A stretch of DNA of 62,282 bases from Acutalibacteraceae bacterium (lineage in GTDB: Bacteria; Bacillota; Clostridia; Oscillospirales; Acutalibacteraceae): assembly GCA_045592665.1 (NCBI GenBank), contig JAZNVE010000148.1, forward strand, positions 1 to 62,282. The letters are read 5' to 3'. A model generated the notes under the pieces. It was not told where the DNA came from and searched no databases. It saw nothing but the letters and a program-made list of their open reading frames with translations. Position numbers and translations under genes: made by a program. Of the stretch, positions 4,241 to 39,294 are shown piece after piece; the stretch's first letter is position 1, and each line of letters begins with the position of its first letter.

Positions 4241-6169
4241 ATGAGAATGAAAAAAACTTTTGCGTTACTTCTTGTAGCTGTTATGCTTCTTTCCTTCGCA
4301 GCCTGCGGAGGAAAAGACAACCCCGACAACGAAGTAAACGAATTAACCAAGGGTGCAATGCCCGATAGCCTTATGGTTGAAAAAGTGGGCAGTTTATCAA
4401 CCGATGCTTTTTCAACTGCTGACGGTGGTCTTTATTATCAGGATGAAACCACACAGAAATACGGTGTTATGTCTTTGGACGGTAACTATGATACCGGCGC
4501 AGTATATGTTAACTGTGACCCCAGTGGCTTATACTTCAAGGTCGCTAAAACCAGCAATCGTAAAATCAGCAATGCCGCAACCTTGAATGACACCGGTCTT
4601 ATTGACGGAAAGGGCAATGTTATAATTCCTGAATTATATGCATATGTTCAGAGCATCAGCGACAGATACTTCCTCGCTGTTGAAGCAACTAAAATTGTCG
4701 CTTCCAAGGACAGAGCGCTTGTTGCATACGATGAAGGCGATGTATCCAAGCCTTTAAGTGCAAGCTTAGGTAATGAAGAAGATGACTTTTTGTTTGCAGG
4801 CAAATGGCTTGTTTACGACAAAACCACCGGCAAGCCCGTACCCGGAGTATACGGAACAGCCGATCAGAGTGTTGTTGCATACGGCAATTTCATCGTCTAC
4901 AATGATGATGAGGGTACCCGTCACGTTGTAGATGCAAACGGTAAGGAGCTCACTCATAAAAAGCTTTTTGGTGACGGTTCATATTCCGTGGAGGGTAAAA
5001 TCGGCACCGTTTATGATACGAACGGCGAAAAATTATTCGATTATGACCTCGCTTCCTACATTCCTTTATCCGTCAACGGTAACTACTATACCGCTTCCGT
5101 TTACAAGGATGGCGCAACAGCCTATGTTATAATGGATAAAACAGGTAAGGTTTTATCAACCGAATTTTCTTCAACCCCCTATTTCTATGGTGATTTAATC
5201 AAGGTTGATAATACTGTTTATGATGTTACAGGTAAAAATATAATTAAGGGCTCCTATGAGCACATCGCCCATAACGCAATGTTTGGTGATTACTACTTCC
5301 TCAACAATAACGACACTTACACATTGATTAACTCAAAGGGTGACGTTTTGTTTGAAGATACAGAAACCAAGAATAAAACAATTTATACTGACGAATTTGT
5401 GGCTTATGATAAGACGGAAGACAATAATATGTATTATTCATATAAGGATGCCGATTACACAATTGCCGGCTACAGCTTCGCACCCTGGCTTGTCAAAACA
5501 GCATCAACCAATAATCTCTACAATATTGTCAACGTAATTTCAGGCGAAACCGTGCTTGAAAACTACAATTCCTATACATACACAACCGTACGTGGTACTG
5601 CCTACTACGTTTACGCAAAGTATAACGGCGGTACAGACGTTTACCTTATTGTTAACGAAGCTCAGCTTAAAGAAATGATGGATAAAAAAGATAAGCTTCT
5701 CAGCGACCTTATCGCAAGCTTCGAAAAAGAAGGTATCACAGTCACAGTCAACAAGGAGACCGGCGAGCTTTCAATGGATTCCTCCGTATTGTTCGGTGGC
5801 GACTCCGCAGAGCTTACCGCGGACGGTAAAGCCTTCCTTGATAAGTTTGTAAAAGCATACACCGCAATAGCATATTCCGATGAATATGACGGTTTCATTT
5901 CAAAAACCTTCGTTGAAGGCCACACAGCACCCACAGCGGATGCAACCTACGCAAGCGATATGCAGCTTTCAGTCGACAGAGCAACAAATGTTAAAAATTA
6001 TTGCGTTTCAAACACTGACGGTGCCGCAGTTAAGCATTTCGTTGAAAATCTTGAAGCTGTGGGCTACTCAAACAGCCAGCCCGTCTATGCAGCGGACGGT
6101 AGTGTGGATATGGATGCTTCCCGTCGTGTTTCCTTCCGTTTTATGCTTAACATAGACCTTTTAAACTGA
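4241..6169 (+). CDS. lipoprotein with WG-like repeats and a C-terminal OmpA/MotB-like peptidoglycan-binding domain
   Basis: AGGAG RBS. Signal peptide plus lipobox (LLSFAAC). Repeated D..GK.i....Y units. The C-terminus (SVLFGGDSAELTADGKAFLDKF...VEGHT...LSVDRATNVKNY...RRVSFRF) has an OmpA-family pattern. Confidence 0.8.
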   Translation: MRMKKTFALLLVAVMLLSFAACGGKDNPDNEVNELTKGAMPDSLMVEKVGSLSTDAFSTADGGLYYQDETTQKYGVMSLDGNYDTGAVYVNCDPSGLYFKVAKTSNRKISNAATLNDTGLIDGKGNVIIPELYAYVQSISDRYFLAVEATKIVASKDRALVAYDEGDVSKPLSASLGNEEDDFLFAGKWLVYDKTTGKPVPGVYGTADQSVVAYGNFIVYNDDEGTRHVVDANGKELTHKKLFGDGSYSVEGKIGTVYDTNGEKLFDYDLASYIPLSVNGNYYTASVYKDGATAYVIMDKTGKVLSTEFSSTPYFYGDLIKVDNTVYDVTGKNIIKGSYEHIAHNAMFGDYYFLNNNDTYTLINSKGDVLFEDTETKNKTIYTDEFVAYDKTEDNNMYYSYKDADYTIAGYSFAPWLVKTASTNNLYNIVNVISGETVLENYNSYTYTTVRGTAYYVYAKYNGGTDVYLIVNEAQLKEMMDKKDKLLSDLIASFEKEGITVTVNKETGELSMDSSVLFGGDSAELTADGKAFLDKFVKAYTAIAYSDEYDGFISKTFVEGHTAPTADATYASDMQLSVDRATNVKNYCVSNTDGAAVKHFVENLEAVGYSNSQPVYAADGSVDMDASRRVSFRFMLNIDLLN

Positions 6170-6205: not shown

Positions 6206-6631
6206 ATGAGCAGACTTGCGGAACGTCTTTTATCACAATTATCTCAGCCCGAAAAATCATACGAGGATTTCTGGAAGGAATACGGGCTTATAATCAAAGA
6301 AAAAAAGCCTGAAGGCTTCTGGAAAAAGGTATTCGAAAAAACTACCATACCTAAAAATACAATCATAAGCAGGGCGGATATAAGCTATACATATTTTTAT
6401 GATATTCTCAAAGGGAAAAAACACCCCTCTCGGGATGTTTTAATAAAAATCTGTATTGCTATGGAGCTTCCCCTTAAAACCTGTCAAAAGGCATTGGATG
6501 TGTATGATTGGGCTCCCTTAACAGCAACAATACATAGGGACAGTATCATTTTGTACGCCATCTCACACAACCTTGACCTCGACGAAACACAGGAGCTTTT
6601 AGAATCCCATTCATTAAAAGCCTTGTGGTAG
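6206..6631 (+). CDS. HTH-like small protein, paralog of 2967..3401
   Basis: RBS GAGGGGA. Colinear similarity to 2967..3401 over the C-terminal ~90 aa. Confidence 0.75.
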   Translation: MSRLAERLLSQLSQPEKSYEDFWKEYGLIIKEKKPEGFWKKVFEKTTIPKNTIISRADISYTYFYDILKGKKHPSRDVLIKICIAMELPLKTCQKALDVYDWAPLTATIHRDSIILYAISHNLDLDETQELLESHSLKALW

Positions 6632-6642: not shown

Positions 6643-6676
6643 AAAAAAAGCAACCGATTTTCTCGGTTGCTTTTTG
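6643..6676. terminator. bidirectional intrinsic terminator between convergent genes
   Basis: Stem gcaaccga (6650-6657) / tcggttgc (6663-6670), flanked by an A-run and a T-run. Confidence 0.7.
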
Positions 6677-6699
6677 TTTAATAAATATACCATAACAAA

Positions 6700-8394
6700 T
6701 TAAGGATTGTCCTTATATGTATATATCGTTCCGTTATAGTTTATAAAACCGACCTCTGTCATATTTTTGATTTTGCCATCACCAGGATCTATAACCAAAA
6801 AATCTTGGGGTTGCAAATTATTTCTATCTGCTCCTTCTGTAACCCCAACTATAGTGACTGCATGTTTACCGCTTATCCTGTTGCCGTTATAAGCATAAAA
6901 CATAGATGGTTTACCCTTTTGAAGCTCATCGTAAGCAACCAACAACGGTTGATTGCTTGTAATTTTATCATATCCATGATATACCGCACCATTTGGACCC
7001 CAATAAGGAGGTTTTGTAGGATCATATTTCTTTCCTGTCATCATAGACAAACCCATACACCATGCAGTTGAGGTGCAGTTCCCACTCAAATCTTGTTTGT
7101 CAGCATATTGCTGAAAAAATTCAACAGTTGAAAATGTTGTATTATTATGTACATACGTAGGATAAATAGAATCTCTGATTTTTTCCAGTTTTGCACGGAT
7201 TGTACTATGCAAATCGTCACATTTACCCTTTACTTCATTGGCATATTGAGTATCCAAGTTATAAACATTGTTAAATATTTTTTCAATGTCCTTAGTACTG
7301 GCATCGTTCATATCAATTAACTTGCGATAATATTTATCTACATTACCACTATAACGATCCCAGTCTGCTGACAAACCGCCAAAAAATTTATCAACTTTAT
7401 ACCAGCAATCCCATCTGCTGATTTGCCACCATTTTTCTTCTTCCGTTTCCTTAGCTGCTTCAATCAACATTGCCTTTGCTTCTACGCTGAAATCACGACA
7501 TATAGCTTTTGCTTCTTTTTTTCTCCATTTCGAAAAACCAGAAGCAAAAATAAACGGTGTGAAAAAAACATTGGTGGTATCAGTTCCTTTATCTAAGATA
7601 TAGCCCAAAATCGTTTTATCTTTTCTTCCGGTGTGATTCCTTTTAAAATTTTCACCACTATTTGAGGGAACCAAACACCCCATCCCATGGGCATCTATAC
7701 CGAAAAAATGGAAAAGATCCCAACCTTTACACTCCAATATAACGATGTTGCCGGGCACATTAAAACACTCTGACACACAATCTCTTTCGTTTTGGAATGA
7801 GGTCATTTTATCTTCAATACGAGAGATTCTGAAAGCGTTACTAACTAAAAAAGCGTCATTGAACCCGGGAGCATTAAAAGTAACACAAGCTGTAAGTTTG
7901 TTCGGATTACTTAAAATAATTGCACCGTACATAGCTAAATTACCACCCAAAGAATGTCCGGTAAAGGAATACCCCTTATAGTTTTGTTTTTCCAAACGCT
8001 CAACAAATTTTTTCATTTGCTCCTGCTGCCCTGTCTGCAAGCTGACCGCCAACTCTACGTCCGATTTAACGTCCTTTTTGGAATCATAATCTAAGCTGAA
8101 TCCTTCTGTTCCTCGGCATGCTACCGTTACCTCGTTATTGGGATCTGCAACTGCAAAAGCGGCAAAACCGGTGCCATATTTATCGTTCTGTGTCTGTACA
8201 ATGTTATAACCCTTTCCCTTAACCTTCTTAAGTAAAGCATCTAAGGCATTTTTATATCCTTCTCCTAAGGCTTCTAATAGCATTTTTTTACTATCATTTA
8301 AAAAGGTATAGAGTGATTTTGGCTCGGCACTGTCTGGTAGCTTTAGATATGCCGCTTGAGAAAGGATCGCCATTTCAATTTCTGTAAATGCCAT
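6700..8394 (-). CDS. module 4 effector candidate: N-terminal class-3 lipase/DUF2974-like alpha/beta hydrolase, central helical region, C-terminal papain-fold cysteine peptidase; no LXG N-terminus
   Basis: RBS AAGGAG; the start lies 4 nt after the upstream stop. GHSLGG nucleophile elbow at FTGHSLGGNL. Helical segment at about aa 300-420. C-terminal Cys...His...Asp candidates: GNCTSTAWCMG, GKHAVTIVGV, VIDPGDG. Confidence 0.8.
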   Translation of the reverse strand: MAFTEIEMAILSQAAYLKLPDSAEPKSLYTFLNDSKKMLLEALGEGYKNALDALLKKVKGKGYNIVQTQNDKYGTGFAAFAVADPNNEVTVACRGTEGFSLDYDSKKDVKSDVELAVSLQTGQQEQMKKFVERLEKQNYKGYSFTGHSLGGNLAMYGAIILSNPNKLTACVTFNAPGFNDAFLVSNAFRISRIEDKMTSFQNERDCVSECFNVPGNIVILECKGWDLFHFFGIDAHGMGCLVPSNSGENFKRNHTGRKDKTILGYILDKGTDTTNVFFTPFIFASGFSKWRKKEAKAICRDFSVEAKAMLIEAAKETEEEKWWQISRWDCWYKVDKFFGGLSADWDRYSGNVDKYYRKLIDMNDASTKDIEKIFNNVYNLDTQYANEVKGKCDDLHSTIRAKLEKIRDSIYPTYVHNNTTFSTVEFFQQYADKQDLSGNCTSTAWCMGLSMMTGKKYDPTKPPYWGPNGAVYHGYDKITSNQPLLVAYDELQKGKPSMFYAYNGNRISGKHAVTIVGVTEGADRNNLQPQDFLVIDPGDGKIKNMTEVGFINYNGTIYTYKDNP

Positions 8395-8398
8395 ACCA

Positions 8399-9079
8399 TC
8401 ACTCCTTGATCACTCTTTTATCCTGTAGTATTTTTTCACTGTACAAAGTAAATTCTATCCGTTCAGCAAAATCGCTACTAATAAGATAGTTTCCAAAATC
8501 AAATTGATTTTCGTCATATGTCTGCTGAATCTGTTCCACATCAAAATCTTTTTTTACTACATAGTACACATAACCGGTATGCGGAGAATATTTTTTTAAT
8601 AATTTCTCAGCAAGTTCCTGCATTGAGTCAGTACAAACCCCATCAGTTACGATATATATTTTAATATATGCATCCGCATTCATCAAGCTACTCTGCCAAT
8701 CAGCCTTAAACATAGGCTGCTCATATCGAAATACCACCCGACACCTAACAAAAATATTATCACCGCTATGTCCAGTAAATTTGCTAAGAAGAATATTTTG
8801 CAATAGAACCTCAACATATTCATCCGTTATGTTATATTTTTGTAAATCTACTTCATCAAAATCGTCTTCATCCACATCTTCCTGAGTACAATAAACAACA
8901 AATTCGTCTGAAAAATCTTTGCTGAAACAAAGTGCACGAATCGATATTCCATTCATGCCATCAAACTCCTTATAGATTTCCTTCACAGTAAATTCTGTAT
9001 GATATTTTTCTTCCAAACAGGTTAAAATTTTGTCTGTAATCTGTACATTATTTTCTAAATTCACACAACCCACCCCCAA
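8399..9079 (-). CDS. acidic cytoplasmic protein of unknown function (chaperone or immunity candidate for the 6700..8394 effector)
   Basis: Long ORF, tightly coupled to the downstream effector gene. No signal peptide or TM. The start is uncertain: TTG at 9079, or GTG at 9064 after GGGGGTGGG. Confidence 0.6.
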   Translation of the reverse strand: MGVGCVNLENNVQITDKILTCLEEKYHTEFTVKEIYKEFDGMNGISIRALCFSKDFSDEFVVYCTQEDVDEDDFDEVDLQKYNITDEYVEVLLQNILLSKFTGHSGDNIFVRCRVVFRYEQPMFKADWQSSLMNADAYIKIYIVTDGVCTDSMQELAEKLLKKYSPHTGYVYYVVKKDFDVEQIQQTYDENQFDFGNYLISSDFAERIEFTLYSEKILQDKRVIKE

Positions 9080-9121
9080 GAAATTAATGTCAATAACCTA
9101 AAAGCGCCACCAAAATATAAC

Positions 9122-9415
9122 TTAATCTTTTCCTATTTCATCTGCCATCTTTGCCGTAGTCAAATCTGATATTTCAAATTGAACACCAGCTTGCTCAAGT
9201 GCTTTCGCCGTTTGCTCCACCACTTCATCCATAACCAACTCAATTGCTTTCATTTCATTAAAAAAACAATTGATTGAATCTGCCATATCACCATAACTTT
9301 CACTGATAAGCTTTGACCTGTTTCTGTATTTTGCAAACCCAGTTATTATTCCTCGAATATTTGAAATCAGTTCTGTTAATTCTGATTGAATAACTTTTAT
9401 TTCAGTATTACCCAT
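9122..9415 (-). CDS. small helical Lap1-like (TIGR04197/DUF3130-like pattern) T7SS accessory protein
   Basis: RBS AAAGGAGAAGG. 97 aa, all-helical pattern. N-terminal EIKV and a C-terminal AGVQFEISDLTTAKMA motif, comparable to the three other ~90-aa module proteins. Confidence 0.7.
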   Translation of the reverse strand: MGNTEIKVIQSELTELISNIRGIITGFAKYRNRSKLISESYGDMADSINCFFNEMKAIELVMDEVVEQTAKALEQAGVQFEISDLTTAKMADEIGKD

Positions 9416-9426
9416 AACCTTCTCCT

Positions 9427-9720
9427 TTAATATAAAAACTGGTCAGCAGAATCCACGTCTGCAATGTACTTTCTGCAAGAATCCTGTACCTCGCTGGTAA
9501 TAATATTCAACGGTTCTTGCAACGCAGTCATCTGTTCACATAGAGATGACAACTTTTTCGACAACCGCTGACTTTGTATTCCGTTCCGGGTAATTTCAGA
9601 AACTCCCTCAACATAGAGAGTAATTACATCATTAAGTTGTAGACTATACTCCGCTATATCTTTAGCCGCAGTTTGAAATTCCGCATCCTTGATTACAACG
9701 CCCTTCTGGATATTAGACAT
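9427..9720 (-). CDS. stand-alone LXG-N-terminus-like helical protein
   Basis: ATG at 9720, 9 nt after AGGAGG; the track start at 9729 is a TTG too close to the RBS. The sequence ...ITRNGIQSQRLSKKL...RKYIADVDSADQFLY aligns by eye with the first ~100 aa of the 13412..15166 protein (...AVTGQTADVIKDL...NSFLKDIDKADDILF). Confidence 0.65.
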   Translation of the reverse strand: MSNIQKGVVIKDAEFQTAAKDIAEYSLQLNDVITLYVEGVSEITRNGIQSQRLSKKLSSLCEQMTALQEPLNIITSEVQDSCRKYIADVDSADQFLY

Positions 9721-10147
9721 CCTCATCAACCTCCTGATAAGTATCGTACGAATATTGAAGTTTTTCTACAGCTTGCTCTAAATGTAATATTTCTTTTTCT
9801 GTGCTTGTAATATCGTTCTTGATTTGAGTTTTTTTAGCGGATGCCGTCGTTTCCAAATTGTTTATTGATGCAGAAGCTTTAATAAACTCCGGGCCCACTA
9901 ACATATCGTTCATTTTATTTTTATAACGCTTTGCACTTTTCACACTACCCAAAAGGCTATCTATTCTCGTCAACCTATTCTTTCTTCGCCTCATAGAATC
10001 GTCAAAGGCTTGAATACGGGTATTACATTGATGTGTAAAGTCCTCAAGAGTTTCATATTTCTCTTCTAGGTTTTTTAGTCGTTTTCTTGCTTCTCCCAGT
10101 TGATTTTTTTTGTCATTCAAATCAGAAAGAATTTTATCTTTTCCCAA
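9713..10147 (-). CDS. ~140-aa coiled-coil module leader protein (Lap2-like role inferred)
   Basis: TTG start 5 nt after GGAGGGG. 144 aa with a charged heptad-like sequence. Same size and position as 12764..13210 and 15464..15880. Confidence 0.65.
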   Translation of the reverse strand: MGKDKILSDLNDKKNQLGEARKRLKNLEEKYETLEDFTHQCNTRIQAFDDSMRRRKNRLTRIDSLLGSVKSAKRYKNKMNDMLVGPEFIKASASINNLETTASAKKTQIKNDITSTEKEILHLEQAVEKLQYSYDTYQEVDEDV

Positions 10148-10274: not shown

Positions 10275-11051
10275 TTAATTAGCTACAAAAACTTTAACAC
10301 CCAAAGCTTGTGACATTTCATCGACCATACGTGCAGATAATGCATTAAGGAATTTTGCTTTTTCTTTGTCTCGATTATCGTCTGCATTTCCGTACTCATC
10401 ATATTCTACTGTAGTATTAATTTCGATAACAACAGCATTATTAGGAACACTCATCATATACTCATAATAGAACATACTATATACAACTTCATCTGCCGCT
10501 TGATTACCATAACGCACACTGATTACGTCGATGTAAGTATCTTCAACCATTTTAAGATTTGATTCGGTAACGTTAACGATATTGCCATCAATTGAGTTTT
10601 TTAATTCCTCAAGCTGTTCAATTGACAGTCTTTCTATGAAAAAAGCATTTCTGATGCAAATATTATTTCTGCCGAATGCACCAATTTTCATCGAAATCGT
10701 TGCTTTTTTGCAGGGGAAATTATATTGATAATCGTCCATTTCTTTCTGATACTTGTCAATATCGGCTTTTTCACACAGGTAGTAATTGAACAAAGATATA
10801 TATGCTGCCTGTAATCTAACGTAATCATCTTCAAATATACTGTTTTTTACAATATTCTTGGTTTTTGCCTCATCCAAATTATAATCCTGAGGAGTTAATT
10901 TAACTAAATCGTCAACATCGTATTCAGACATAGCAATAGTTGTTATCATCATTTCTGTGTCCTCCTTTTTGTTTGTTCTTTTTTTACAGGCGGGCAAACC
11001 GAAACAAACTATAAAAAGTAAAATTAATGCCCCTACTCTTCTTTTAACCAT
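10275..11051 (-). CDS. lipoprotein, immunity candidate for the 11044..12480 peptidase effector
   Basis: 8-nt overlap with the upstream toxin gene. Signal peptide plus lipobox (CFGLPAC). Confidence 0.7.
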   Translation of the reverse strand: MVKRRVGALILLFIVCFGLPACKKRTNKKEDTEMMITTIAMSEYDVDDLVKLTPQDYNLDEAKTKNIVKNSIFEDDYVRLQAAYISLFNYYLCEKADIDKYQKEMDDYQYNFPCKKATISMKIGAFGRNNICIRNAFFIERLSIEQLEELKNSIDGNIVNVTESNLKMVEDTYIDVISVRYGNQAADEVVYSMFYYEYMMSVPNNAVVIEINTTVEYDEYGNADDNRDKEKAKFLNALSARMVDEMSQALGVKVFVAN

Positions 11052-12480
11052 ATTTCACCTGTTGGAACGCGAACCTCCTGTCACCGGGTCCATAGCCACT
11101 TTCGTCAATGTCAGCATAATCATTCGGGTCAATATAGTACTTTCTACCCCACGAAGATACAATAAGCATACCGTCCTCCGTAACGCCTGTAACCACCATA
11201 GCGTGGCCACCATCTATATCCTCAACAATTTTACCGTTCTCATCCCTGAGTCGTATAGGTTTTACTGCAACTATTATTTCGCCATCGGATGAAAGATCTT
11301 CAAACTTTTCTACGGTCAGCTTGTCATAATTTACAACGTCAACTTTCACACCACGGTCATTCAAATAGTTTTCCCATATATTTTCACGAGAATCTATGCT
11401 CGTTCCTTCTGAGTTTTTATTATCCTCTGAGCAATATAAATCCACCATTACAAGATCATAATTAGGATTTCCGTTCTCATCATACATCGGGAAGCCAAAA
11501 ACTTCTTCAAACTCTTGTTCTTTACCTGCAAAATGACCAAAGATTGTGTTTGTCAATGCCATATATCCACAACCCTCTGCAGCCATACCTATCAAAAATT
11601 CTTCGATTTCCTCGTCTGTATATTTCGGATAGTACTTTTTTACAACTTGTCTGATTTCTTCCCTGTCACCATTTATCCATCTTTTCTTTGCGTTGCTTTG
11701 ATTGCCACCATAATTTGGCGGATCATTAGCATACGCAGGATTATTACCAACGCGCACTCCTTTAAGTTTCTCAATAATATCACTATACAGTTTGTTTAAC
11801 AATGGATAGAATATCATAGAATCCCAATCACTAACACTTCTGTCGCTTATCATTTTTAATATACTTATATATGATTTAAGATCTTGTATACACACCGTTA
11901 AGGTAACCGCATAACTCTGATACTTGATTTCTGTGTCATTAAGTTTTTTTTGAATTTTGTCAAGTTTCTTTTTAGTTATGTCGTTAATCTCCATAATCCT
12001 TTTACGGGATTTTTCGACCGAAACCTCTTTTCCCCAAAGTCCATCCCATGCGGTAGCAATTTTTGCACCGCAATCTTCAAACCAATCTCCGGTTTTTTTC
12101 CAAAAATCGGCATCCTCATCAATCAAATCGCACTGCTTTTTATATTCTTTAAATGCGGAATCCGTATAATCACGTAACCCCGTGTAAGCAAATTCGTATA
12201 AAATATACTCACCGCTTACACGCTGAGCCTCATTCATACTATTGAGATATGATTTCGAAAAGTCCTTAACCTTTAAAAGTATTCTCTCTATAAGCTCCGG
12301 TACTTTTTCTACCGCAGAAGTATATCTTTCTAAATTGTTGTGAATGTTACCGGAAATAACTCCCTCAGATGAAAGACACTTAAGGATTTTTATGTACTGT
12401 TCAAAACAAACTTTGGTTTTACCTAATTCCTTTAGATAATCCTCTCTCAAAAAATCATATTCTGGATATTTTATCTTCAT
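11044..12480 (-). CDS. module 3 effector: LXG-like helical N-terminus with C-terminal papain-fold cysteine peptidase/amidase
   Basis: RBS AGAGGAA. N-terminal helices with ISGNIHNNLERY (LxG-like). C-terminal Cys/His candidates AAEGCGYMALTN and DGGHAMVVTGV. Confidence 0.75.
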   Translation of the reverse strand: MKIKYPEYDFLREDYLKELGKTKVCFEQYIKILKCLSSEGVISGNIHNNLERYTSAVEKVPELIERILLKVKDFSKSYLNSMNEAQRVSGEYILYEFAYTGLRDYTDSAFKEYKKQCDLIDEDADFWKKTGDWFEDCGAKIATAWDGLWGKEVSVEKSRKRIMEINDITKKKLDKIQKKLNDTEIKYQSYAVTLTVCIQDLKSYISILKMISDRSVSDWDSMIFYPLLNKLYSDIIEKLKGVRVGNNPAYANDPPNYGGNQSNAKKRWINGDREEIRQVVKKYYPKYTDEEIEEFLIGMAAEGCGYMALTNTIFGHFAGKEQEFEEVFGFPMYDENGNPNYDLVMVDLYCSEDNKNSEGTSIDSRENIWENYLNDRGVKVDVVNYDKLTVEKFEDLSSDGEIIVAVKPIRLRDENGKIVEDIDGGHAMVVTGVTEDGMLIVSSWGRKYYIDPNDYADIDESGYGPGDRRFAFQQVKYG

Positions 12481-13411: not shown

Positions 13412-15166
13412 TCAATTACCGAATATGTTTTCCGGTTCTGTCAAGTCCGTAAAAGGATTATCGTTTTTGCCCATATAGTCATCCTTGGACATTAAGTCAA
13501 CCTGTGCAAAATCATTCATCGATGTATTTTTAATTGTTTCGCGACAGTATTCATAGTACGCTTTCTCCTCACCGGAGGACACATCAGCCATTCTATCAAA
13601 AAAATCCACCCTTGCTTTTTTTGCAGCCTCAAAGGCTTCCTGTACAGATTGCACCATTGTTTCATAACCGGGATCCGAAGAACTCATATTGCTAAGCTTT
13701 TGTGCCGCTGTCTCAAATGTATTGCCTGTGGATTCAATCCAGTCATACATAGCAACAATTTCCATCTCACTGAGTGCTTTATCAACTATCTTGCCGCCTA
13801 TCTTACCTATAAAGGCTTCTATAAAGCCCTTCTTTTCCAGATATTTCTGCATTGCTTTAACGGTTGCCTGTATTCCTTTTTCTTTCGAAACCTCTCTCAT
13901 ATGGTCAAAGGTTTCGTTAAGATATGCATCAAATTCCTTGTTATAAAGCTCTTCTAAGCGTTCTATGGCTTTGCGTACATTCTCATTACTTAAATCGCAA
14001 TTAGCCTTGTATCTTTCGAGTGCTGCTTTACTTTCGGACATATCAAAGAATAATTGATACCATATATCTACGTATGCCTCTGAATCACCCGAGAATTTTT
14101 TAATTTTCTTTATTATTTTATTAAATGTTTCTACGTCATCTCCGGGATTTGCATACTTCGCATATTTATCTCCGTATTTCTCAAACAACTCTAATAATCT
14201 ATCAAACTCTGCCTTTTTTTCATCATAATTCTTTTTGGATTCCACATAATCATTTGAAAACTGATTAAAATATTCTTTGGCATTATCCACGGTTTCTCTG
14301 AACTTTTCGAAATCCGTTATAAAGAGATTTCCGATACTTTCTTCGCAAATAGAATGTATCACTTTTGTGGAATCATCCCAATAATCATCCAAAGTTTCTG
14401 CAAAATGCTTCACATCCTCGCCGTCTACGGACGGGTCCTCGGGATTTCCAATTAATTTTTTTTGCAAATCCTGTAATTCTTTTATCTGCTTCTTTAAATC
14501 GGCAACATTTTGTTTTGTCAGATTGTCAGCTCCGCCTTTGCTACGGGGAGTCATAATATAAATAAGCTTATCGAGTATATCTCCGTAAGCTTTCATTTCT
14601 TTGTAAATATTCCTTAGTCTGTTGCGGTAATCACCGTCAACATTTCTGACGTCTGTCCAAATTTTGCGTAGCTCCTGTCTGGTAACGGAGCCCAACTCCT
14701 TTACCCGATTAACCATAGTCTTGGATTTATCGGCAAGCTCGTTTCCCATACCGCCGAAAATGAGATTTACAAGATAACTTATCATACCACCCATACCAAG
14801 CTCAATCTTCGCTACGTAAATGGCGTTGGTGAATTCTTTGTCCGTTAATATTTTTCTGCCTTTGTTCTTAAAAAGAATATCGTCCGCTTTGTCTATATCC
14901 TTTAAAAAGCTGTTAACAGTACTTGAATAGTCATTACAAAAATCGGAAATCATACCCTTTGCGGTACCGACCTGCACAACAAGGTCTTTAATAACATCCG
15001 CCGTCTGACCCGTAACGGCAGCCTCCTCGGATAAAGCTGCAAGATATTTATAATAATTTTCAAACAACTGCTCGTATTCTTTGCCGCACTTTTTAACTGC
15101 TTCACACCTGTTTTTGTAGTATGTAACCCCTACAACCAATTCGCTTTGCTTATAAGTTTTAGCCAT
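13412..15166 (-). CDS. module 2 large all-helical LXG-like protein; no recognisable toxin domain
   Basis: ATG at 15166, 6 nt after GAGGTG (track start is a TTG at 15184). N-terminus has AAVTGQTADVIKDL and FLKDIDKADDILF (LXG-like). One Gly-rich hydrophobic patch (GMGGMISYLVNLIFGGMG). The remainder is charged and helical. Confidence 0.75.
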   Translation of the reverse strand: MAKTYKQSELVVGVTYYKNRCEAVKKCGKEYEQLFENYYKYLAALSEEAAVTGQTADVIKDLVVQVGTAKGMISDFCNDYSSTVNSFLKDIDKADDILFKNKGRKILTDKEFTNAIYVAKIELGMGGMISYLVNLIFGGMGNELADKSKTMVNRVKELGSVTRQELRKIWTDVRNVDGDYRNRLRNIYKEMKAYGDILDKLIYIMTPRSKGGADNLTKQNVADLKKQIKELQDLQKKLIGNPEDPSVDGEDVKHFAETLDDYWDDSTKVIHSICEESIGNLFITDFEKFRETVDNAKEYFNQFSNDYVESKKNYDEKKAEFDRLLELFEKYGDKYAKYANPGDDVETFNKIIKKIKKFSGDSEAYVDIWYQLFFDMSESKAALERYKANCDLSNENVRKAIERLEELYNKEFDAYLNETFDHMREVSKEKGIQATVKAMQKYLEKKGFIEAFIGKIGGKIVDKALSEMEIVAMYDWIESTGNTFETAAQKLSNMSSSDPGYETMVQSVQEAFEAAKKARVDFFDRMADVSSGEEKAYYEYCRETIKNTSMNDFAQVDLMSKDDYMGKNDNPFTDLTEPENIFGN

Positions 15167-15180
15167 TCCACTCACCTCAA

Positions 15181-15447
15181 TCAAACGCTTGCATTCTTGT
15201 CCGCTTTTTCAAAAGCTTCTGCAACTTCGTTCATTTTTTCTTTTGTGTTTCGAAATAATGAATGGAATTTCTTTTTCATATCCTCGTCAAGATAATCAAG
15301 AATTTTGTCGCTGTAATGTGCAGTCAAGCCGTCATTTGAAACTTCGCTTGTTCCGTTAGCTACGGGAATTGATTCGTTTACAAGATTCCCTATTTTTTTA
15401 GCATATTCTCTGACCTCATCGGGCTTATTTCTGATTTCACTTGCCAT
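15181..15447 (-). CDS. small helical Lap1-like protein
   Basis: ATG at 15447, 6 nt after GAGGTG. C-terminal MNEVAEAFEKADKNA motif. Confidence 0.7.
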   Translation of the reverse strand: MASEIRNKPDEVREYAKKIGNLVNESIPVANGTSEVSNDGLTAHYSDKILDYLDEDMKKKFHSLFRNTKEKMNEVAEAFEKADKNASV

Positions 15448-19603: not shown

Positions 19604-19897
19604 TTAAGCCTTGAACTGGTTAGCAATGCTTGTATCTGTTTCTTCAACAATTTTAGCTGTTGAATCAAGAGCTGTAGCAATTTCGTAAATGAGAGCCTCT
19701 GCTTTCTGGAAACCGGGTTTAAGCTCCTGGTAACGTGCTGCATAGGATTCGCTTGCTGCACCTTCCCATTCAGCCTGGAGCTGCTGAAGCAAGTTGTCTA
19801 ACTGAGCGATAACGCCGTTAACTGCTTCGCCCTGTCTGCGATACTGATTTGCTTTTTCTCTCATCTGATCAGGAGTAATTCTGATTTGACCTGCCAT
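19604..19897 (-). CDS. esxA: WXG100 family protein EsxA
   Basis: 97 aa. RBS GGAGGGA. IRITPDQM...LQAEWEGAASESY (WxG) in a helix-turn-helix layout. Confidence 0.9.
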   Translation of the reverse strand: MAGQIRITPDQMREKANQYRRQGEAVNGVIAQLDNLLQQLQAEWEGAASESYAARYQELKPGFQKAEALIYEIATALDSTAKIVEETDTSIANQFKA

Positions 19898-20207: not shown

Positions 20208-23200
20208 TTATGACTGCTGTGTTAAAACACTCTTAATTTTCAGACAATCGTTATCCTTGATATAATAACAATCACCTAAGTCTATGGGTTTTTTAAACGC
20301 ACGCATAACCGCCAACGGCAAATCTATTATTTTCATATTTGAAATATCATCAAAGTACATAAATCTGCGAGCATCACGAAGACTTTTAATAAGCTCGGGT
20401 GATGAATAGGATATATTTGTATTCTCATATCCGCCGAATATTACACAAACATTCATATTTTTGTACTTGCCTACAATGTTTTTATAAGCATCCATAACAC
20501 TCATATTAGTGCTGATATATTGCATTGCATCCGCGTTGTTTACAATAAGCACAAGGAGCTTTGATTCCTCTAATACGGAATCCTCACCCGAAGCCAGACG
20601 TGAATATCTTGACTGTAATTCTTCTTCGATTGTTTTTATTGCATCCGCACTCTTTTCAGGCATAACCTCATATGAAACAACGTTTGCGTTAGCCTTGAGA
20701 GGCATAAGCTTCTTATTGATACCGTCAATAATATGAACTTCTGTTTTATCTGCATAATATTCTTCAAGAGAATTTACCAGATACTTAATGAAATTATGCT
20801 TTCCTGAGCCATCGCGACCTGTAACCGTAAGGGGACCGCCCATATTGGCAAGATCAAGCACAAAGGGACTTACGCAAGCATAATCCAGACCCGCAACAAC
20901 AGAGAAGCCATCCTGCATATATCCCGTAAGATTCTCTCTTACAAAGGATTCCGTCAACATTTCGGGAATTACGGGTATCATCTTTGCAAAGGATTTCTTG
21001 TATTTGCTGTTTGTTTGTGCTATAAATTCCTTTATTTCTTTTACTCGGTCGATTTCTTTTTCTCCCTTGAATGCCAAATATGCCTGACAATCAAGGTGAG
21101 TTTTATCTATTTCAACAATACATCTGCCGTGAATATCATCAATGCGTTCACTGCAATGGTCGAACAAAGAGCTGTACTCGTTTGAATCATTACAGAACAA
21201 AGCAATACGTGTAGAGAAGTTTGAAAGATACTTATAACCGATTCCCTGAGTCTGGGAGTTTGCGATAATTATACTTATACCCACCGACAAGCCCTCACGA
21301 CAAATGGCAAGAAGCTCATCATCGTCCTGGAAATAAAGCTCCTTAAGGGCAGTAAGGTTATCTATCATAAGAACTATCTGAGGAAGATCCGTTCTGCCCG
21401 CTTCACGATAGGCGGAAAACGAGCTTACACCCACGGACAGAAGCTTCTCTTTTCGTTGTGCAATTTCGGTATTGATGAGCTTAAAAAGATTTTTAAGCTT
21501 TTCATCCTCTGATGATGTTACAACACCGCCCACATGATTAAGCTTCTCAAAGTTTTTAAGAACCATTGAAGCAAAGTCTATAATATAAATAGAAACCTCA
21601 TCGGGTGTATATTTAGTTGACAAGCTTCTGATGATATTTTGTAAAATATTTGTTTTACCGCTCTGTGCAGAACCGATAAGCATAACATTCTGATTCCCCA
21701 CATCGATTTTATATGTTCCCTGATACTGGTTATCCGGGTCATCATAAACACCGATCTCAACCTCAATTTTGCCGTCATCGGCTCTTTCGTGGTCCACAAA
21801 ATCAATGCACGTGCTCAACGACGGCAGACAGATATCGGGCAATTTTTTAATTTGTTTGCTTTCAAAATGGTTGTGCACATACTCAACGATTGCATCCAGC
21901 TGTGTGGAGCCTCCGTCAGTTTTATCTTTTTTCTGCACATATACGGGAACGCGTTTACCGGAATCGGTCATCTGGAAAATAGCAAACTCTTTAACCTTGC
22001 TTTCGTCAGCCTTTTCAGATGCACCGCTGTACGCGGATTGGAACAATTCAAATATTTCGTTGTTACCCACCTGTAAATATGCGCGACCGGGCTCTTTGAT
22101 TTCAGCGGCGAGGGGGGATTTAATAACCTCGTTACTGTCCTCCTGACTCTGAACCTTAAGACAGAGCTTAAATCTTGAGTTACTCCATATCTGCTCGTTA
22201 ACCTGACCCGCAGGCTTCTGAGTCGCAAGAATAAGGTGTACACCAAGGCTTCGACCTATACGGGCAGCAGAAATAAGCTCCTTCATAAACTCGGGCTGTT
22301 CCGCTTTAAGCTCAGCGAACTCGTCAACAACAATAATAAGGTGGGGTAACGGAGTTTTAGTTTCGCCGGCTTTATATTTTTTGATATATTTATCAATATG
22401 GTTAACATCCGCTTCCGCAAAAAGTCTCTGTCGTTTTTGAAGCTCAGCTTTAATTGATTTAAGAGAACGGTTAATCTCCTTACCGTCAATATTGGTAATT
22501 GCGCCCATCATATGGGGTAAATCACGAAACTGGTTAGCCATACCACCACCCTTGAAGTCGATAATAACAAAACCTACTTCATAAGGATGGAACAACGTAG
22601 CCATTGAAAGAATATATGTCTGAAGAATCTCGGATTTACCTGAACCGGTTGTACCGGCAACAAGACCGTGAGGTCCGTGTGCCTTATCGTGCAGGTCGAG
22701 ATATACGGTGCTTGTTTTGGAAACACCTAAAGGCGCTGCCATGGATTTGAAAACCTTGGATGTGCTCCAACGTTTGTCCAAATCAATATCATCAACCGCG
22801 AGAATATTTAACAATTCAAACAAGGATATGTTTTTCGTAAGAGAGCCTTCAAGTGAAATTTCCTCCGTATAAACAGGGGCAAGAATACGTACAATATCCG
22901 CTGCAGAAGCATTATCAATCTTGGGATATGTAAAGACTTGTGTTTTGCTTCTGTCCTCTGTATGTACGAGTGCCGCTGTATTATTACCCTGAATGTCAAT
23001 AATATAGGAGCAACCCATAGGCACATCTGCTTTTGTATTACCGAAGAACACAAAAATCACACCTAAATCCTTAGCTTCATCAACAAATCTTGAAATAGGA
23101 TGATTCTGGAACCCATATTCATCGTGGAAGAATACCACAATTCTGTTATCAAACTTCTTTTCCTGCTTTCTGTAGGAAAGCTCTTTGTAAAGGTACTCGA

Positions 23201-24719
23201 AAACAAGATTTTTGCTTTCATCATCCGTAACAATAAGGCGACTGCCTATTTCCTCCGAATATGCGTGAGGCAGCATACGTAACCAACGAACATTTTTGGC
23301 GTGTCTGTTTTCTGCCACGAAAATCATTTTAACATCGCTGAAATACTGTCTTGCGGCAATATCGACGATAAGATTTTTCATTATCTCAAAGCGCTCGTAT
23401 TTATCACCCACAACACCTATTGCGTTAGCTTCCTTAAGGTCACACACAATTGGAGCATCTTTGATATATTTGTATTCCTCGCTGAGTTTTTCGGGCATCT
23501 GCTGAAGGTCATCACCCACTTCAAGCTTTTCTTGTTTCTTATAGTTTATTTCGCGGGTTGCCTCAACAAGACCATTGCCAAGCCTTACGCAAAGAAAATC
23601 GTCATCTGTGGGGCGTCTGTCGAACAAATCCGATGAGAAAATGCCGAATCTCTGTCTTTCAACATCCTGCGAAACATATATTTCCTCGCGGACCTTATGC
23701 TCCTCAGCACGACATTTTTCAATATCCTTGCGTTTCTGGGCAATATATGCGTTATATGTATCTATACGCTCCTTAAGACTATGCTCATAGTCTTTTTTGC
23801 CCTCGGACCTATTCAATATAACCGTAAGAATTGATACAACAACAGAGAAAAGGCTGACAACTATCATAGCCGGATTCACAAACGCCATCATTATAGACGA
23901 CATTACCATTGTCAGAGAAGGTAACAATTTTGTTATCAATGATCCATTTTTAGGCTTCTGGGGCTTTGCTGAAGGGTCAAGAATCTCAATTTTTTCATCA
24001 TTGATAATTGACTTTATTCTTGTATTACGGTTGAATTTGGGATACGAATTCTGCTCCGGACAATCCTTGTAGGTTACGGAGTTTAAGCCCATATCATCTC
24101 TTATCTGAGTCCAGATTTTACCGTCTTTATAATAGAAGAAATAATCGGACAATGAGAAGAAGTCACCGTTTTTAATGATTTCATCACCAAGGGCTTTTTT
24201 ACCGTTGTGGTAAACGCCATATTGGCTGTATCCGATTTTAAGCTGATACCCTTCTCCTTTTTTCAATAATGTAATCGTATCATTTTTTATAAAAGGACTT
24301 GCTAAAACAATATTACCGCCGGCATTCGCCCCGATGGATATTGAGCTGAGGCTTGCAACGTCAAGAATTCTCTCATATTTAACCTTACCGTTATCAAAAT
24401 CTATAAGGAATTCAATAGTGAAAGCGGTAATATCCGAATCCTGGTATTTAACATCAATAATGTCGCCGTTTCTTAAGGATATATTCATAAGCTTTCTTAC
24501 GTCGCCTACGGAAAGATATAAATTATCCGAACAGAACACGGACCATTGAGCATTGTTTTTAGTAAATAACAGTTCAATGGGACCAAAGAACAGATTTTTG
24601 TGTAAACGGGCTTCACAATCAACACCCGTACCTATTTTGTACTGATTGTACTCGGGCGTTAATTCAACCTCCTTATATAAATTCTGATTAGAAATGATTA
24701 TTTTATATCTGCTGTTCAT
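20208..24719 (-). CDS. essC: T7SS FtsK/SpoIIIE-family ATPase EssC
   Basis: 1503 aa. RBS AAGGGGG. Two N-terminal FHA-like repeats and two TM helices at about aa 260-300. Three P-loop domains with Walker A motifs GTTGSGKSE, GSAQSGKTN and GRDGSGKHN. Confidence 0.95.
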   Translation of the reverse strand: MNSRYKIIISNQNLYKEVELTPEYNQYKIGTGVDCEARLHKNLFFGPIELLFTKNNAQWSVFCSDNLYLSVGDVRKLMNISLRNGDIIDVKYQDSDITAFTIEFLIDFDNGKVKYERILDVASLSSISIGANAGGNIVLASPFIKNDTITLLKKGEGYQLKIGYSQYGVYHNGKKALGDEIIKNGDFFSLSDYFFYYKDGKIWTQIRDDMGLNSVTYKDCPEQNSYPKFNRNTRIKSIINDEKIEILDPSAKPQKPKNGSLITKLLPSLTMVMSSIMMAFVNPAMIVVSLFSVVVSILTVILNRSEGKKDYEHSLKERIDTYNAYIAQKRKDIEKCRAEEHKVREEIYVSQDVERQRFGIFSSDLFDRRPTDDDFLCVRLGNGLVEATREINYKKQEKLEVGDDLQQMPEKLSEEYKYIKDAPIVCDLKEANAIGVVGDKYERFEIMKNLIVDIAARQYFSDVKMIFVAENRHAKNVRWLRMLPHAYSEEIGSRLIVTDDESKNLVFEYLYKELSYRKQEKKFDNRIVVFFHDEYGFQNHPISRFVDEAKDLGVIFVFFGNTKADVPMGCSYIIDIQGNNTAALVHTEDRSKTQVFTYPKIDNASAADIVRILAPVYTEEISLEGSLTKNISLFELLNILAVDDIDLDKRWSTSKVFKSMAAPLGVSKTSTVYLDLHDKAHGPHGLVAGTTGSGKSEILQTYILSMATLFHPYEVGFVIIDFKGGGMANQFRDLPHMMGAITNIDGKEINRSLKSIKAELQKRQRLFAEADVNHIDKYIKKYKAGETKTPLPHLIIVVDEFAELKAEQPEFMKELISAARIGRSLGVHLILATQKPAGQVNEQIWSNSRFKLCLKVQSQEDSNEVIKSPLAAEIKEPGRAYLQVGNNEIFELFQSAYSGASEKADESKVKEFAIFQMTDSGKRVPVYVQKKDKTDGGSTQLDAIVEYVHNHFESKQIKKLPDICLPSLSTCIDFVDHERADDGKIEVEIGVYDDPDNQYQGTYKIDVGNQNVMLIGSAQSGKTNILQNIIRSLSTKYTPDEVSIYIIDFASMVLKNFEKLNHVGGVVTSSEDEKLKNLFKLINTEIAQRKEKLLSVGVSSFSAYREAGRTDLPQIVLMIDNLTALKELYFQDDDELLAICREGLSVGISIIIANSQTQGIGYKYLSNFSTRIALFCNDSNEYSSLFDHCSERIDDIHGRCIVEIDKTHLDCQAYLAFKGEKEIDRVKEIKEFIAQTNSKYKKSFAKMIPVIPEMLTESFVRENLTGYMQDGFSVVAGLDYACVSPFVLDLANMGGPLTVTGRDGSGKHNFIKYLVNSLEEYYADKTEVHIIDGINKKLMPLKANANVVSYEVMPEKSADAIKTIEEELQSRYSRLASGEDSVLEESKLLVLIVNNADAMQYISTNMSVMDAYKNIVGKYKNMNVCVIFGGYENTNISYSSPELIKSLRDARRFMYFDDISNMKIIDLPLAVMRAFKKPIDLGDCYYIKDNDCLKIKSVLTQQS

Positions 24720-25018: not shown

Positions 25019-26077
25019 TTATATAATCAAAAATGTCGTTTTTTGTATCCCTTTTTCATTTGAAAAATCGTCCGCCTTCATTCTCGGATAATTTGAAAAA
25101 TGCTCAATATATTCATTTACTGCAAATTTCATCGATAATTCTGACGAAACAAGGGCGTTTGCATTACCTCTGTCAAAATCATTGCATACGAACAGATACT
25201 TTTCCGAATTGAGACCGTTTATATTTGATGCCATAATATTGGTAGCATAAACCGCGCCCATATCCTGCTTAGTAACAATAATAACTTTATCCGCTGCATT
25301 GATTAATCCTGCTTTAAAATCATCAAAGGCTATGTCCGCATCCACTACTATATAGTCATATTCTTTGGATTTTTTCGCAGCAACCGCAAGCTCGGAAAAG
25401 ACCATATAGCTGATTCCCAAGGACATCAACGATGATTTAAAGGGTGGTATGTAACTGAACTGCTCTTTTCTTACAACATGCTTTATTTCTGAAAAAACAA
25501 GGGTTGAACGGTTCGTAAACCTCGAATACACATCCAATGCAGTTATGGGTGTTTTGTTATCTAACAGGTGCTGAAAGTGCTGTAGTCGGTCCGCATTTAT
25601 GTATAAAACCTTTTTATAGTTCTTGGTAAGGCAGGAGCTTATACCCATAGCGACGGTTGTTTTGCCCACTCCGCCACAGGCAGAAGTAACAAGTATTATC
25701 TGAGGCTCCTTTTTCTCGTTTACGTGTACCCTTAAGGAGCCCTGACTCTTACCTATAATTTCGGTGAAAATCTCTTTAATGCTTGTATATTTATAAATAT
25801 GACTTACATTAAGCTGAGCCGTGGATTCTTCTGTATACTGCTCGGTCATCAAAAAAATATGACCTATATCGTGTCTTAAAACGCTATTATCAAATAAATC
25901 TTCTGATATTATAAGAATTTCCGCCTTTTTGGGCTCGGAAAAATATTGGTTAAAATAATCCTCTTTCGTTATAACCTCAATATCTACCTTTTCGAAAAAT
26001 TCTTCTATGAATTTATATTGTATGGGAATTACGTAATCCTTATCAGAATCAGCAATTATAATCTTGGGTTTTGCCAT
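25019..26077 (-). CDS. receiver-like domain fused to a ParA/MinD/CpaE-type P-loop ATPase
   Basis: N-terminal KIIIADSDKDYV...ILIISEDL resembles a CheY-like fold. P-loop ILVTSACGGVGKTTVAMG and Walker B-like YDYIVVDAD. The signature Lys of KGGxGK is Cys here. Confidence 0.8.
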   Translation of the reverse strand: MAKPKIIIADSDKDYVIPIQYKFIEEFFEKVDIEVITKEDYFNQYFSEPKKAEILIISEDLFDNSVLRHDIGHIFLMTEQYTEESTAQLNVSHIYKYTSIKEIFTEIIGKSQGSLRVHVNEKKEPQIILVTSACGGVGKTTVAMGISSCLTKNYKKVLYINADRLQHFQHLLDNKTPITALDVYSRFTNRSTLVFSEIKHVVRKEQFSYIPPFKSSLMSLGISYMVFSELAVAAKKSKEYDYIVVDADIAFDDFKAGLINAADKVIIVTKQDMGAVYATNIMASNINGLNSEKYLFVCNDFDRGNANALVSSELSMKFAVNEYIEHFSNYPRMKADDFSNEKGIQKTTFLII

Positions 26078-26102
26078 ACCGATTTATATCCCTTCTGCAA
26101 TT

Positions 26103-27038: not shown

Positions 27039-27116
27039 AAGCATACCCCTACATATATTTTGTTTATCTCAAGTGAAGGCGCTGTCAGTGCCCTCAGTTC
27101 AAATAAACCATACTCT

Positions 27117-27140
27117 CCGGTGCAGGTTACCCTGCACCGG
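27117..27140 (-). terminator. perfect 10-bp hairpin after the giant gene (attenuator or RNA-stability element)
   Basis: ccggtgcagg-ttac-cctgcaccgg. The downstream minus-strand sequence AGAGTATGGTTTATTTG is only moderately T-rich. Confidence 0.4.
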
Positions 27141-27161
27141 AAAGCTTTAGTTAATTAAGTT

Positions 27162-34665: not shown

Positions 34666-34668
34666 AAA

Positions 34669-36402: not shown

Positions 36403-36414
36403 TTACCCCTCACC

Positions 36415-37185: not shown

Positions 37186-37200
37186 CTTTTACCTCCCTGT

Positions 37201-39126: not shown

Positions 39127-39194
39127 AAAAACCTCCTAAGCTCAAGTTTTTTATGCTAAATTATAATACACCTATCCTAATTATAATCGGTGTA

Positions 39195-39223: not shown

Positions 39224-39294
39224 TCTATAATCCCCAATTCTCACGCTCATATTTTATTTATATATAATATGTATAAAACTTATCATTTTTATTT

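Follow-up and report, generated by a model that had tools for sequence, protein, structure and literature searches.

How a type VII secretion system (T7SS) recognises a toxin whose targeting domain stands at the wrong end of the polypeptide was left open in the papers on the reverse lipases TslA and TslM, as were the questions of why only lipases are reversed and whether other toxin domains are so arranged (PMC10730906, PMC13560087). The same question is raised by a 62,282-nucleotide (nt) stretch from an Acutalibacteraceae bacterium (contig JAZNVE010000148.1, assembly GCA_045592665.1), hereafter the window, to the whole of which all positions refer. At the distal end of a minus-strand T7SS locus in this window, a gene group designated module 4 closes with a 564-amino-acid (aa) effector that starts directly with a lipase domain and has no helical N-terminus. 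Module 4 probably constitutes a cassette of five genes that serves a reverse lipase exported by the T7SS, the targeting domain of which is divided over two polypeptides, designated p100 and the effector itself. All five open reading frames (ORFs) were present and intact on the minus strand, followed by a terminator that closes the operon:

9713..10147, minus strand: p144, 144 aa, coiled-coil partner of the YwqH-like (DUF5082/Lap4-type) class, from hhalign and weak Pfam matches
9427..9729, minus strand: p100, predicted free-standing first helix-turn-helix (seg1) of a targeting domain, ending ...DSADQFLY*, from profile homology; 100 aa from a TTG start, although the gene caller (P0271) begins at the ATG at 9720, which gives 97 aa
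9122..9415, minus strand: p97, 97 aa, partner of the DUF5344 (Lap3-type) class, from hhalign and weak Pfam matches
8399..9079, minus strand: p226, 226 aa, acidic (isoelectric point 4.46), of a lipase-linked, mostly lipoprotein family, from neighbourhood and alignment A3
6700..8394, minus strand: reverse lipase effector, 564 aa, with its stop codon at 6700-6702
7525..8394, minus strand: effector aa 1-290, class-3 / Mbeg1-like (DUF2974) lipase, from Pfam and conserved columns
7162..7509, minus strand: effector aa 296-411, seg2 (RDFS...KETEEEKWWQISRWDCWYKVDKFFGG...YYRKLIDMNDAS...), predicted second part of the targeting domain, from profile homology; internal here, C-terminal in most relatives
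6703..7161, minus strand: effector aa 412-564, papain-fold Cys440/His511/Asp peptidase (distant Peptidase_C39_2), from an AlphaFold2 (AF2) model, Foldseek and conservation
6643..6677, minus strand: intrinsic terminator at the end of the operon, from inspection of the sequence

The targeting domain and its partners

The same locus contains modules of ordinary, forward polarity. Module 1 comprised, by Pfam, YwqH-like, DUF5344, LXG-WHH nuclease and SUKH immunity genes, and modules 2 and 3 each comprised two small helical genes and a long effector, of 590 aa (m2_590) and 478 aa (m3_478), respectively. As an earlier, sequence-only reading of this DNA had correctly noticed, module 4 alone has three small helical genes, against two in each of modules 1-3. 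Forward effectors begin with a helical domain of ~240 aa, of which we call the first ~100 aa seg1 and the next ~115-125 aa seg2. Two such fused domains, recognised by hidden Markov model (HMM), hhalign and alignment, served as comparators within the window:

14456..15184, minus strand: fused seg1 and seg2, m2_590 aa 1-243
11755..12480, minus strand: fused seg1 and seg2, m3_478 aa 2-242

Related loci were fetched (L-numbers, with P-numbers for individual proteins) and a census was taken over 86 of them. Profile comparison placed p100 on the N-termini of forward effectors position for position (aa 8-100 on aa 8-100; hhalign 98.4%, E 4.7e-15) and seg2 on the part that follows (aa 106-230; hhalign 97.5%, E 8.8e-12). 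BLASTP aligned p100 end to end with aa 6-100 of effectors of 626 aa in L004 (E 1e-8) and 660 aa in L002 (E 1e-7), both alignments ending in D.AD.[FY]LY. An HMM of seven p100 members recovered these two proteins at 2.8e-16 and 2.6e-10 together with m3_478 (~4e-5) and m2_590 (aa 13-105, E 4.4e-5, with the whole profile covered), and the seg2 HMM matched the same two immediately behind, at aa 107-196 in the L004 protein (E 1.8e-7) and aa 102-190 in the L002 protein (E 7e-7). Reciprocally, an HMM built from five forward N-termini only retrieved p100s via its positions 8-100 and ~70 lipases via ~100-210, and located the domain at aa 293-407 of the window effector (E 3.8e-11; 7.5e-10 in a second run). 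Reversed sequences, used as a null, gave a best E of 0.016. The earlier alignment of p100 with the N-terminal ~100 aa of the module 2 effector was upheld by this profile match and by MAFFT, which gave the same register and paired DKADDILF (m2_590 aa 98-105) with DSADQFLY of p100, though pairwise BLASTP between the two was not significant (E>3) and their relation is visible only with family profiles.

The two matches also adjoin. In alignment A4, whose rows are 11-23% identical to the first row, the p100s stop at ...FLY, the helical blocks of the lipases start at RDFS, and fused proteins bridge the two with 5-7 residues; in the window the junction is exact (...ADQFLY*, then RDFS...). Because p100 matches aa 8-100, seg2 matches aa 106-230 and the junction between them is exact, the targeting domain appears to be encoded in two genes, the effector keeping one half and a separate gene supplying the other. 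Gene distribution across the 86 loci was in keeping with this: there were 7 fused, 9 seg1-only and 12 seg2-only proteins, every seg1-only gene (9/9) lay in a locus with a seg2-only protein, and a free p100 stood beside 8 of 9 seg2 lipases vs 2 of 87 other lipases (Fisher p=3e-9). In a large-database search the single p100 sequence returned only itself, and the A4 profile returned 8 proteins, with no forward effectors among them. Paenibacillus ORFs of ~100 aa were considered as p100 candidates and discarded, their HMM E values of 0.004-0.02 being comparable with that of reversed sequences (0.016). A split domain without a lipase was observed at L017:299-2007, where a 96-aa seg1 and a 99-aa gene accompany a 372-aa protein whose RDFT-seg2 spans aa 37-145 and whose C-terminal 227 aa are unclassified.

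The remaining two small proteins resemble the partners of forward effectors. The p144 family aligned with the first small gene of the forward modules, including the YwqH-like gene called by Pfam in module 1 (hhalign 90.7%, E 1.2e-6, aa 6-130), and p144 homologues gave weak full-length YwqH-like Pfam matches (E 0.008, 0.13). The protein has an acidic C-terminal tail with YQEVD and is kept in the cassettes of L001-L004, L008 and L083. Likewise, the p97 family aligned with the second small gene of the forward modules, including the Pfam DUF5344 gene of module 1 (hhalign 82%, E 1.1e-5), and its class gave weak full-length DUF5344 matches (E 0.058, 0.0075, 0.032). p97 carries F80-E-I-S-D84, an FxxxD motif, and in relatives [FY]xxxD could be read from the sequences ~15 residues from the C-terminus. 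A motif of the F/YxxxD class on a partner is needed for export of LXG toxins (PMC10801868, PMC13355648), and the 224-aa LXG domain of TelA has two binding partners, one from DUF5344 and one from DUF5082 (PMC10801868). Module 4 appears to have the composition of such an LXG-type complex, in that a predicted DUF5344-class partner and a predicted DUF5082/YwqH-like one are encoded upstream, one of them with F/YxxxD, and its three small genes are best read as two canonical partners and a detached first hairpin. If p100 begins at TTG, its ORF shares 17 nt (9713..9729) with that of p144; with either start codon, the tight packing of these two genes is consistent with co-translation of the partners. 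Two p97-class partners in other loci were enlarged by a C-terminal domain of ~200 aa (L017:2975-3952, 325 aa; L004:5308-6213, 301 aa), the one in L017 with Cys/His motifs (NCTWYTGKKC…GHVLYID). Neither added domain had a Pfam match, and both may be cargo carried by the partner protein.

The sequence-only reading had suggested that the targeting domain was split off and supplied in trans, and the homology of seg1 and seg2 with the forward domain makes this the best reading of the locus. Its companion statement, that the effector lacks an LXG-type N-terminus, is right insofar as no helical N-terminus is present but overlooked the seg2 half that is probably retained at aa ~296-411. We propose that p100 would pack non-covalently onto seg2 and so rebuild the bundle of the forward effectors, that p144 and the FxxxD-bearing p97 would then join as the usual pair of Lap-type partners, and that the EssC machine would recognise the resulting four-chain particle. 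Since the chain of seg2 can be extended at both ends, such a particle could bear the lipase N-terminally and, in roughly a fifth of the clusters, a second cargo of variable kind C-terminally. A T7SS context is indicated by cassettes directly after essC in L001, L002 and L083, by sister lipases that end in a true WXG100 domain (P0033, P0100; WXG100-like hairpin) and, in the window, by the LXG-WHH and SUKH genes of module 1 and two further genes of the same locus:

20208..24719, minus strand: EssC-type ATPase
19604..19897, minus strand: WXG100 gene

Lipase core, second cargo and candidate immunity protein

The description of the 564-aa protein as a lipase (GHSLGG) with a helical middle and a papain-fold end, given in the sequence-only reading, agreed with Pfam, residue conservation and structure prediction. 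Pfam recognised Mbeg1-like (48 bits, cut-off 21.1) and Lipase_3 (29.3 bits, cut-off 22); GHS148LGG, D205 and H236 were invariant across 37 lipase relatives (alignment A2), and the family profile matched lipases in the PDB and a type VI secretion system lipase effector. Homologues of the whole protein (n=129) were mostly 400-425 aa long, covered the first 73% of the query and typically stopped exactly where the extra domain of the window protein starts; the closest named relatives came from Faecalimonas, other Lachnospiraceae and Oscillospiraceae metagenome-assembled genomes (MAGs). By HMM, nothing followed the helical block in 51 of 65 family clusters; the block is C-terminal in these, but in the window protein, where 153 aa come after it, it is internal. 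With seg2 as their end, these 51 are reverse lipases of the ordinary kind that TslA and TslM represent, and the third mode of coupling a toxin to a T7SS that the earlier reading suggested is not one made from scratch. In 13 of the 65 clusters the protein had a C-terminal extension, 88-485 aa long, and these extensions were of six or more kinds unrelated to one another.

The gene order of the cassette (~145 aa, ~97 aa, ~97-100 aa, 204-250 aa, lipase) recurred in L001, L002 and L083, and also in L003, L004, L008 and L013, and was unchanged with or without an extension on the lipase, which ties the small genes to the core of lipase and helical block rather than to the peptidase. As in polymorphic toxins, a conserved lipase and seg2 are followed by interchangeable C-terminal cargo that is common to other carriers.

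Other extensions and tails were observed within the lipase family. A 188-aa extension with the motifs TWCNIYVWDV…GHVAMVAP is carried by P0004, P0005, P0009, P0010 and P0101 (for example L002:6001-7818, aa ~418-605), and this Cys/His domain had no Pfam or PDB sequence match, whilst P0053, P0063 and P0072 have long Gly/Ala-rich tails. Lipases of the same family in L005, L006, L009, L011, L012, L014 and L015 end in another type of C-terminal helix (…NRCIxYLxETAxDFENxE…) and are followed (~8200-9200) by three small genes, one of ~85 aa and two WXG100-like ones of ~100 aa; they are often preceded by a membrane zinc-ribbon protein of 77-78 aa, and L012 and L014 each hold two lipase/lipoprotein pairs in tandem.

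The cargo behind seg2 in the window is a papain-fold peptidase domain, for which the AF2 model reached a predicted local distance difference test (pLDDT) score of 96 and a predicted template modelling (pTM) score of 0.92. Foldseek matched it to staphopain, SpvD, a CdiA-CT and C39 domains at template modelling (TM) scores of 0.45-0.59, and the closest folds also included a papain-like toxin/immunity pair. Across 66-84 relatives the Cys, His and Gly were invariant and the Asp near-invariant. The window domain had no Pfam match to Peptidase_C39_2 (PF13529), and 21 of 84 relatives matched it at E<1e-3, mostly below the gathering score. In all 207 homologues the domain was C-terminal; the closest consisted of an N-terminal helical region of ~60-190 aa and the peptidase, and other carriers had ChW, Big_2, SH3_3, SLH, Ricin or M23 modules. 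Since its carriers range from T7SS targeting domains, fused or WXG100-like, to cell-surface proteins of Sec type, the peptidase is a mobile cargo domain, which probably acts extracellularly. On T7SS-type helical carriers it is the only cargo in P0121-P0130 and in P0172. The latter (415 aa) consists of seg1, seg2, a linker and the same peptidase family, is 35% identical to window aa 296-564 and, in L083, is encoded directly after a plain 418-aa lipase cassette. P0172 and the window protein therefore have the same cargo on a fused and on a split carrier. On a lipase, the peptidase was found in two clusters only (P0001, P0002), P0002 of L003 being a 72%-identical orthologue with the same three-domain architecture.

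Both enzymes would probably act from outside on the envelope of a competitor, the lipase on membrane lipids and the peptidase possibly on a wall-associated substrate. Alternatively, the peptidase might be an accessory and not a second toxin, cutting wall peptides to give the lipase access, or processing or releasing the lipase after export. No immunity gene lies directly downstream of this C-terminal domain, as would be expected of a polymorphic toxin: its gene is followed by the terminator in the window, with no gene between stop codon and hairpin, as the sequence-only reading had reported, and by WXG100 or regulatory genes in L003, L083 and L085. This missing dedicated immunity gene, the fusion of relatives to wall- or surface-binding modules (ChW, SH3_3, SLH, M23, Big_2), and the p97-class partners with an extra Cys/His domain beside a lipase in L017 and L004, which suggest that pairing a lipase with a second hydrolase recurs, all suit an accessory. 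The domain nevertheless has an effector role of its own where it is the only cargo (P0121-P0130, P0172), and its closest folds include bona fide toxins (the CdiA-CT and the papain-like toxin/immunity pair) besides proteases. We regard an accessory role as rather unlikely on balance; it concerns the role of the cargo only and is compatible with the split-domain mechanism.

A Cys/His domain also ends the m3_478 effector (11044..12480, minus strand; EGCGYMA…GGHAMVVTGV). Its assignment to the module 4 peptidase family was rejected, the match being 15/49 residues around the His, with none to the family HMM, and with it fell the idea that the 258-aa lipoprotein of module 3 gives cross-protection. 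This lipoprotein (10275..11051, minus strand), which follows m3_478, is its presumed immunity protein and had no homologue in the other fetched loci.

For the lipase, an immunity candidate is at hand. A gene of the p226 family lay directly upstream of 66 of 96 lipase genes with any helical tail (8/9 with seg2, 58/87 without), spread from Paenibacillus to Lachnospiraceae, and at least 40 of these 66 upstream members have a lipobox-type N-terminus. The sequence-only reading had left p226 as either a chaperone or an immunity factor; because the family co-varies with the lipase domain, adjoins the toxin-coding end and has lipoprotein character, in parallel with TilA (PMC10730906), p226 is most likely the lipase immunity protein, the chaperone being the poorer guess. 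The window copy is altered, however. It begins inside the lipobox (MGV-GC vs IGVCGC in alignment A3), has an in-frame TAG 7 codons upstream and has thus lost its signal peptide, and the protein would here stay cytoplasmic. Around its start (9060..9125) there is a run of G, TGGGGGTGGG, and another frame still encodes what looks like a remnant of hydrophobic character (…LLTLISWGWVV), which suggests that a deletion or frameshift took away the lipoprotein signal peptide.

Such damage could also mean that the window arrangement is a recent and possibly non-functional recombinant, in which a plain reverse lipase captured the cargo of a neighbouring forward effector within a decaying cassette. The plain 418-aa lipase cassette of L083, directly before a forward module bearing the same peptidase family, would fit this, as would the occurrence of the peptidase on a lipase in just two clusters. 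Yet the five ORFs are intact and the catalytic residues of both enzymes are kept, P0002 in L003 combines the same architecture with an intact lipoprotein p226, signal-less p226 copies recur in L002, L006 and L009, and C-terminal cargo in 13 of 65 clusters indicates a recurrent, selected design. We therefore regard the recombinant explanation as improbable.

Relation to LXG effectors and known reverse lipases

That p100 is instead a third generic Lap- or WXG100-like helper, resembling forward effectors through helical-hairpin composition, is very improbable: although all these proteins are helical and of low identity, the pairwise comparison with m2_590 fails and three Laps are reported for some LXG toxins (PMC10730906), the p100 matches are colinear, end to end and far from the null (E 1e-8 to 1e-16 against at least 0.016) with a common terminal D.AD.[FY]LY, seg2 matches precisely the stretch behind seg1 in fused proteins, free p100 genes occur only where seg2-only proteins do, and p100 has no Pfam WXG100 match and is unlike both partner classes (YwqH-like and DUF5344; hhalign at most 1.2%).

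Several points do weigh against a split LXG-like targeting domain in a dual-enzyme toxin. Within the window, p100 reaches m2_590 and m3_478 at E ~4e-5 by profile only, and the fused and split counts rest on the 86 loci. The model of the fused domain (P0172, from a 7-sequence alignment) had a pLDDT of 46, too low to judge the packing by; the packing of seg1 on seg2 is therefore inferred from their covalent linkage in homologues, and contact between p100 and seg2, like export, is a prediction from sequence. Immunity is a further weak point, since no immunity-like gene accompanied the peptidase in any context examined (window, L003, L083, L085), and a candidate p226 without an export signal fits a self-toxic pair of extracellular enzymes poorly. 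Finally, the LXG label is unproven. The sequence-only reading had called p100 LXG-like, and this identity was not borne out: fused seg1 and seg2 domains had no match to Pfam LXG (PF04740) at E<=10, hhalign against LXG-positive N-termini gave 7.5%, and a PDB profile search returned no LXG structure. One weak colinear HMM match to the true LXG protein of the window (E 2.4e-5 with bias filters off, null 0.028) makes a remote relation possible. Because seg1 and seg2 lack a detectable relation to Pfam LXG or to an LXG structure, it is their partner classes and context that support the analogy with LXG-Lap complexes.

Judged by sequence, module 4 adds another lineage to the reverse-lipase T7SS effectors already known, of which two families have been published, TslA (2023) and TslM (2026); both are secreted and require helical partners (PMC10730906, PMC13560087). 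Like TslA/Tsl1 of the Staphylococcus aureus T7SSb (PMC10730906), the window effector starts with a class-3-type lipase and continues into a helical region for targeting; it also has small helical partners, a gene in or near T7SS loci and a candidate immunity gene of lipoprotein type beside the toxin-coding end, where the lipoprotein immunity gene of TslA also lies (PMC10730906). In contrast, TslA has two downstream partners (TlaA1, TlaA2), whereas module 4 has three genes upstream, one of which (p100) appears to be a piece of the targeting domain itself, and none downstream before the terminator; our comparison with TslA is confined to its published description. TilA is a DUF576 protein, while neither p226 nor 11 homologues had a Pfam DUF576 match, and TslA ends at its helical domain where the window protein continues into a second enzyme. 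TslM/Tsl2 (PMC13560087) is likewise a reverse lipase, with non-staphylococcal members of ~400 aa that lack the linker, but has a single WXG100 partner (TlaM) and divergently encoded DUF1433 transmembrane immunity proteins; in module 4, the three small proteins had no WXG100 Pfam match and there was no DUF1433 match. Reverse lipases from T7SSe/T7SSg loci (Neobacillus sp. 114 and Paenibacillus aquistagni strain 11, our L034; PMC11217815) belong to the same broad lipase family, and Paenibacillus lipases usually have a p226-family lipoprotein gene directly upstream, but their C-terminal helical type and partners are different, with no seg2 and no p100 above noise.

Among forward systems, TelA with LapA3 (DUF5344) and LapA4 (DUF5082) (PMC10801868) offers a similar helical targeting domain of ~224-240 aa, the same two partner classes, FxxxD on a partner and a composite export signal; its N-terminal Pfam LXG domain is, however, one chain, and that of module 4 is apparently in two chains and not detectably LXG. 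PE-PPE and EsxA-EsxB of the T7SSa (PMC10801868, PMC13355648) are also helical bundles of separate polypeptides, one possibly with C-terminal cargo, but come from another phylum and other families, show no sequence relation and have no N-terminal cargo. The features that appear new in module 4, as read from its sequence, are the split targeting domain and the cargo on both sides of the targeting segment; in the literature that was searched, neither a divided T7SS targeting domain nor a T7SS effector with two-sided cargo was found described.

Wider reading and the remainder of the locus

For the recognition question, the cassette offers a concrete answer, namely that the bundle recognised would be the same as in forward effectors because the N-terminal hairpin is, as we propose, supplied in trans. 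Fused and split versions stand side by side in the same loci and constitute natural controls. The enzymatic cargo on both sides of seg2 in the window effector and the non-lipase protein with the same split in L017 widen the search scope for T7SS substrates in gut Clostridia, and profiles of seg1, seg2 and the p226 family find effectors that motif-based LXG/WXG searches miss. A more general extension, that reverse T7SS substrates at large are forward substrates with a cut targeting domain and a free first hairpin, forming a multi-warhead particle, is offered tentatively and is somewhat less probable than not. If it were true, the machine would meet one and the same bundle of helices in every substrate, with no need to read signals placed at the opposite end, and the cut would free both ends of seg2, so that a lipase and one or two further hydrolases might leave in each export event; the notion of a multi-enzyme particle draws on the partners in L017 and L004, which may also carry enzymes.

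The terminator behind the effector gene has a stem of GCAACCGA/TCGGTTGC (6670-6663 / 6657-6650), a 5-nt loop and T7 at 6649-6643. A consensus terminator scanner made no call on this hairpin (6643..6677), which was read directly from the sequence instead and may also be used by the convergent gene at 6206..6631. Beyond that gene, the window encodes a large lipoprotein (4241..6169, plus strand) with an OmpA-like C-terminal domain (…D[MI][DE]ASRRVSFRF…), which also occurs at L011:10709-12661 and L017:8503-10020, so that such a lipoprotein recurs near T7SS lipase loci in three unrelated contigs.

Upstream of essC (25019..41459, minus strand) lie FHA/DUF6382 proteins (26103..27044 and 37201..39126), two Ser/Thr kinases, a PP2C phosphatase, a ParA-like ATPase and a 2110-aa Big_1 (Ig-like) protein, and Pfam gave no match to EssA, EssB or EsaA among the scanned proteins of this region. 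The FHA/DUF6382, kinase, PP2C and 2110-aa Ig-like genes suggest that the locus is a clostridial T7SS variant rather than a canonical T7SSb. At its far end, a 701-aa protein (39354..41459, minus strand) combines a GDSL lipase/acylhydrolase with FHA and Ser/Thr kinase domains, an unusual architecture beside a T7SS.

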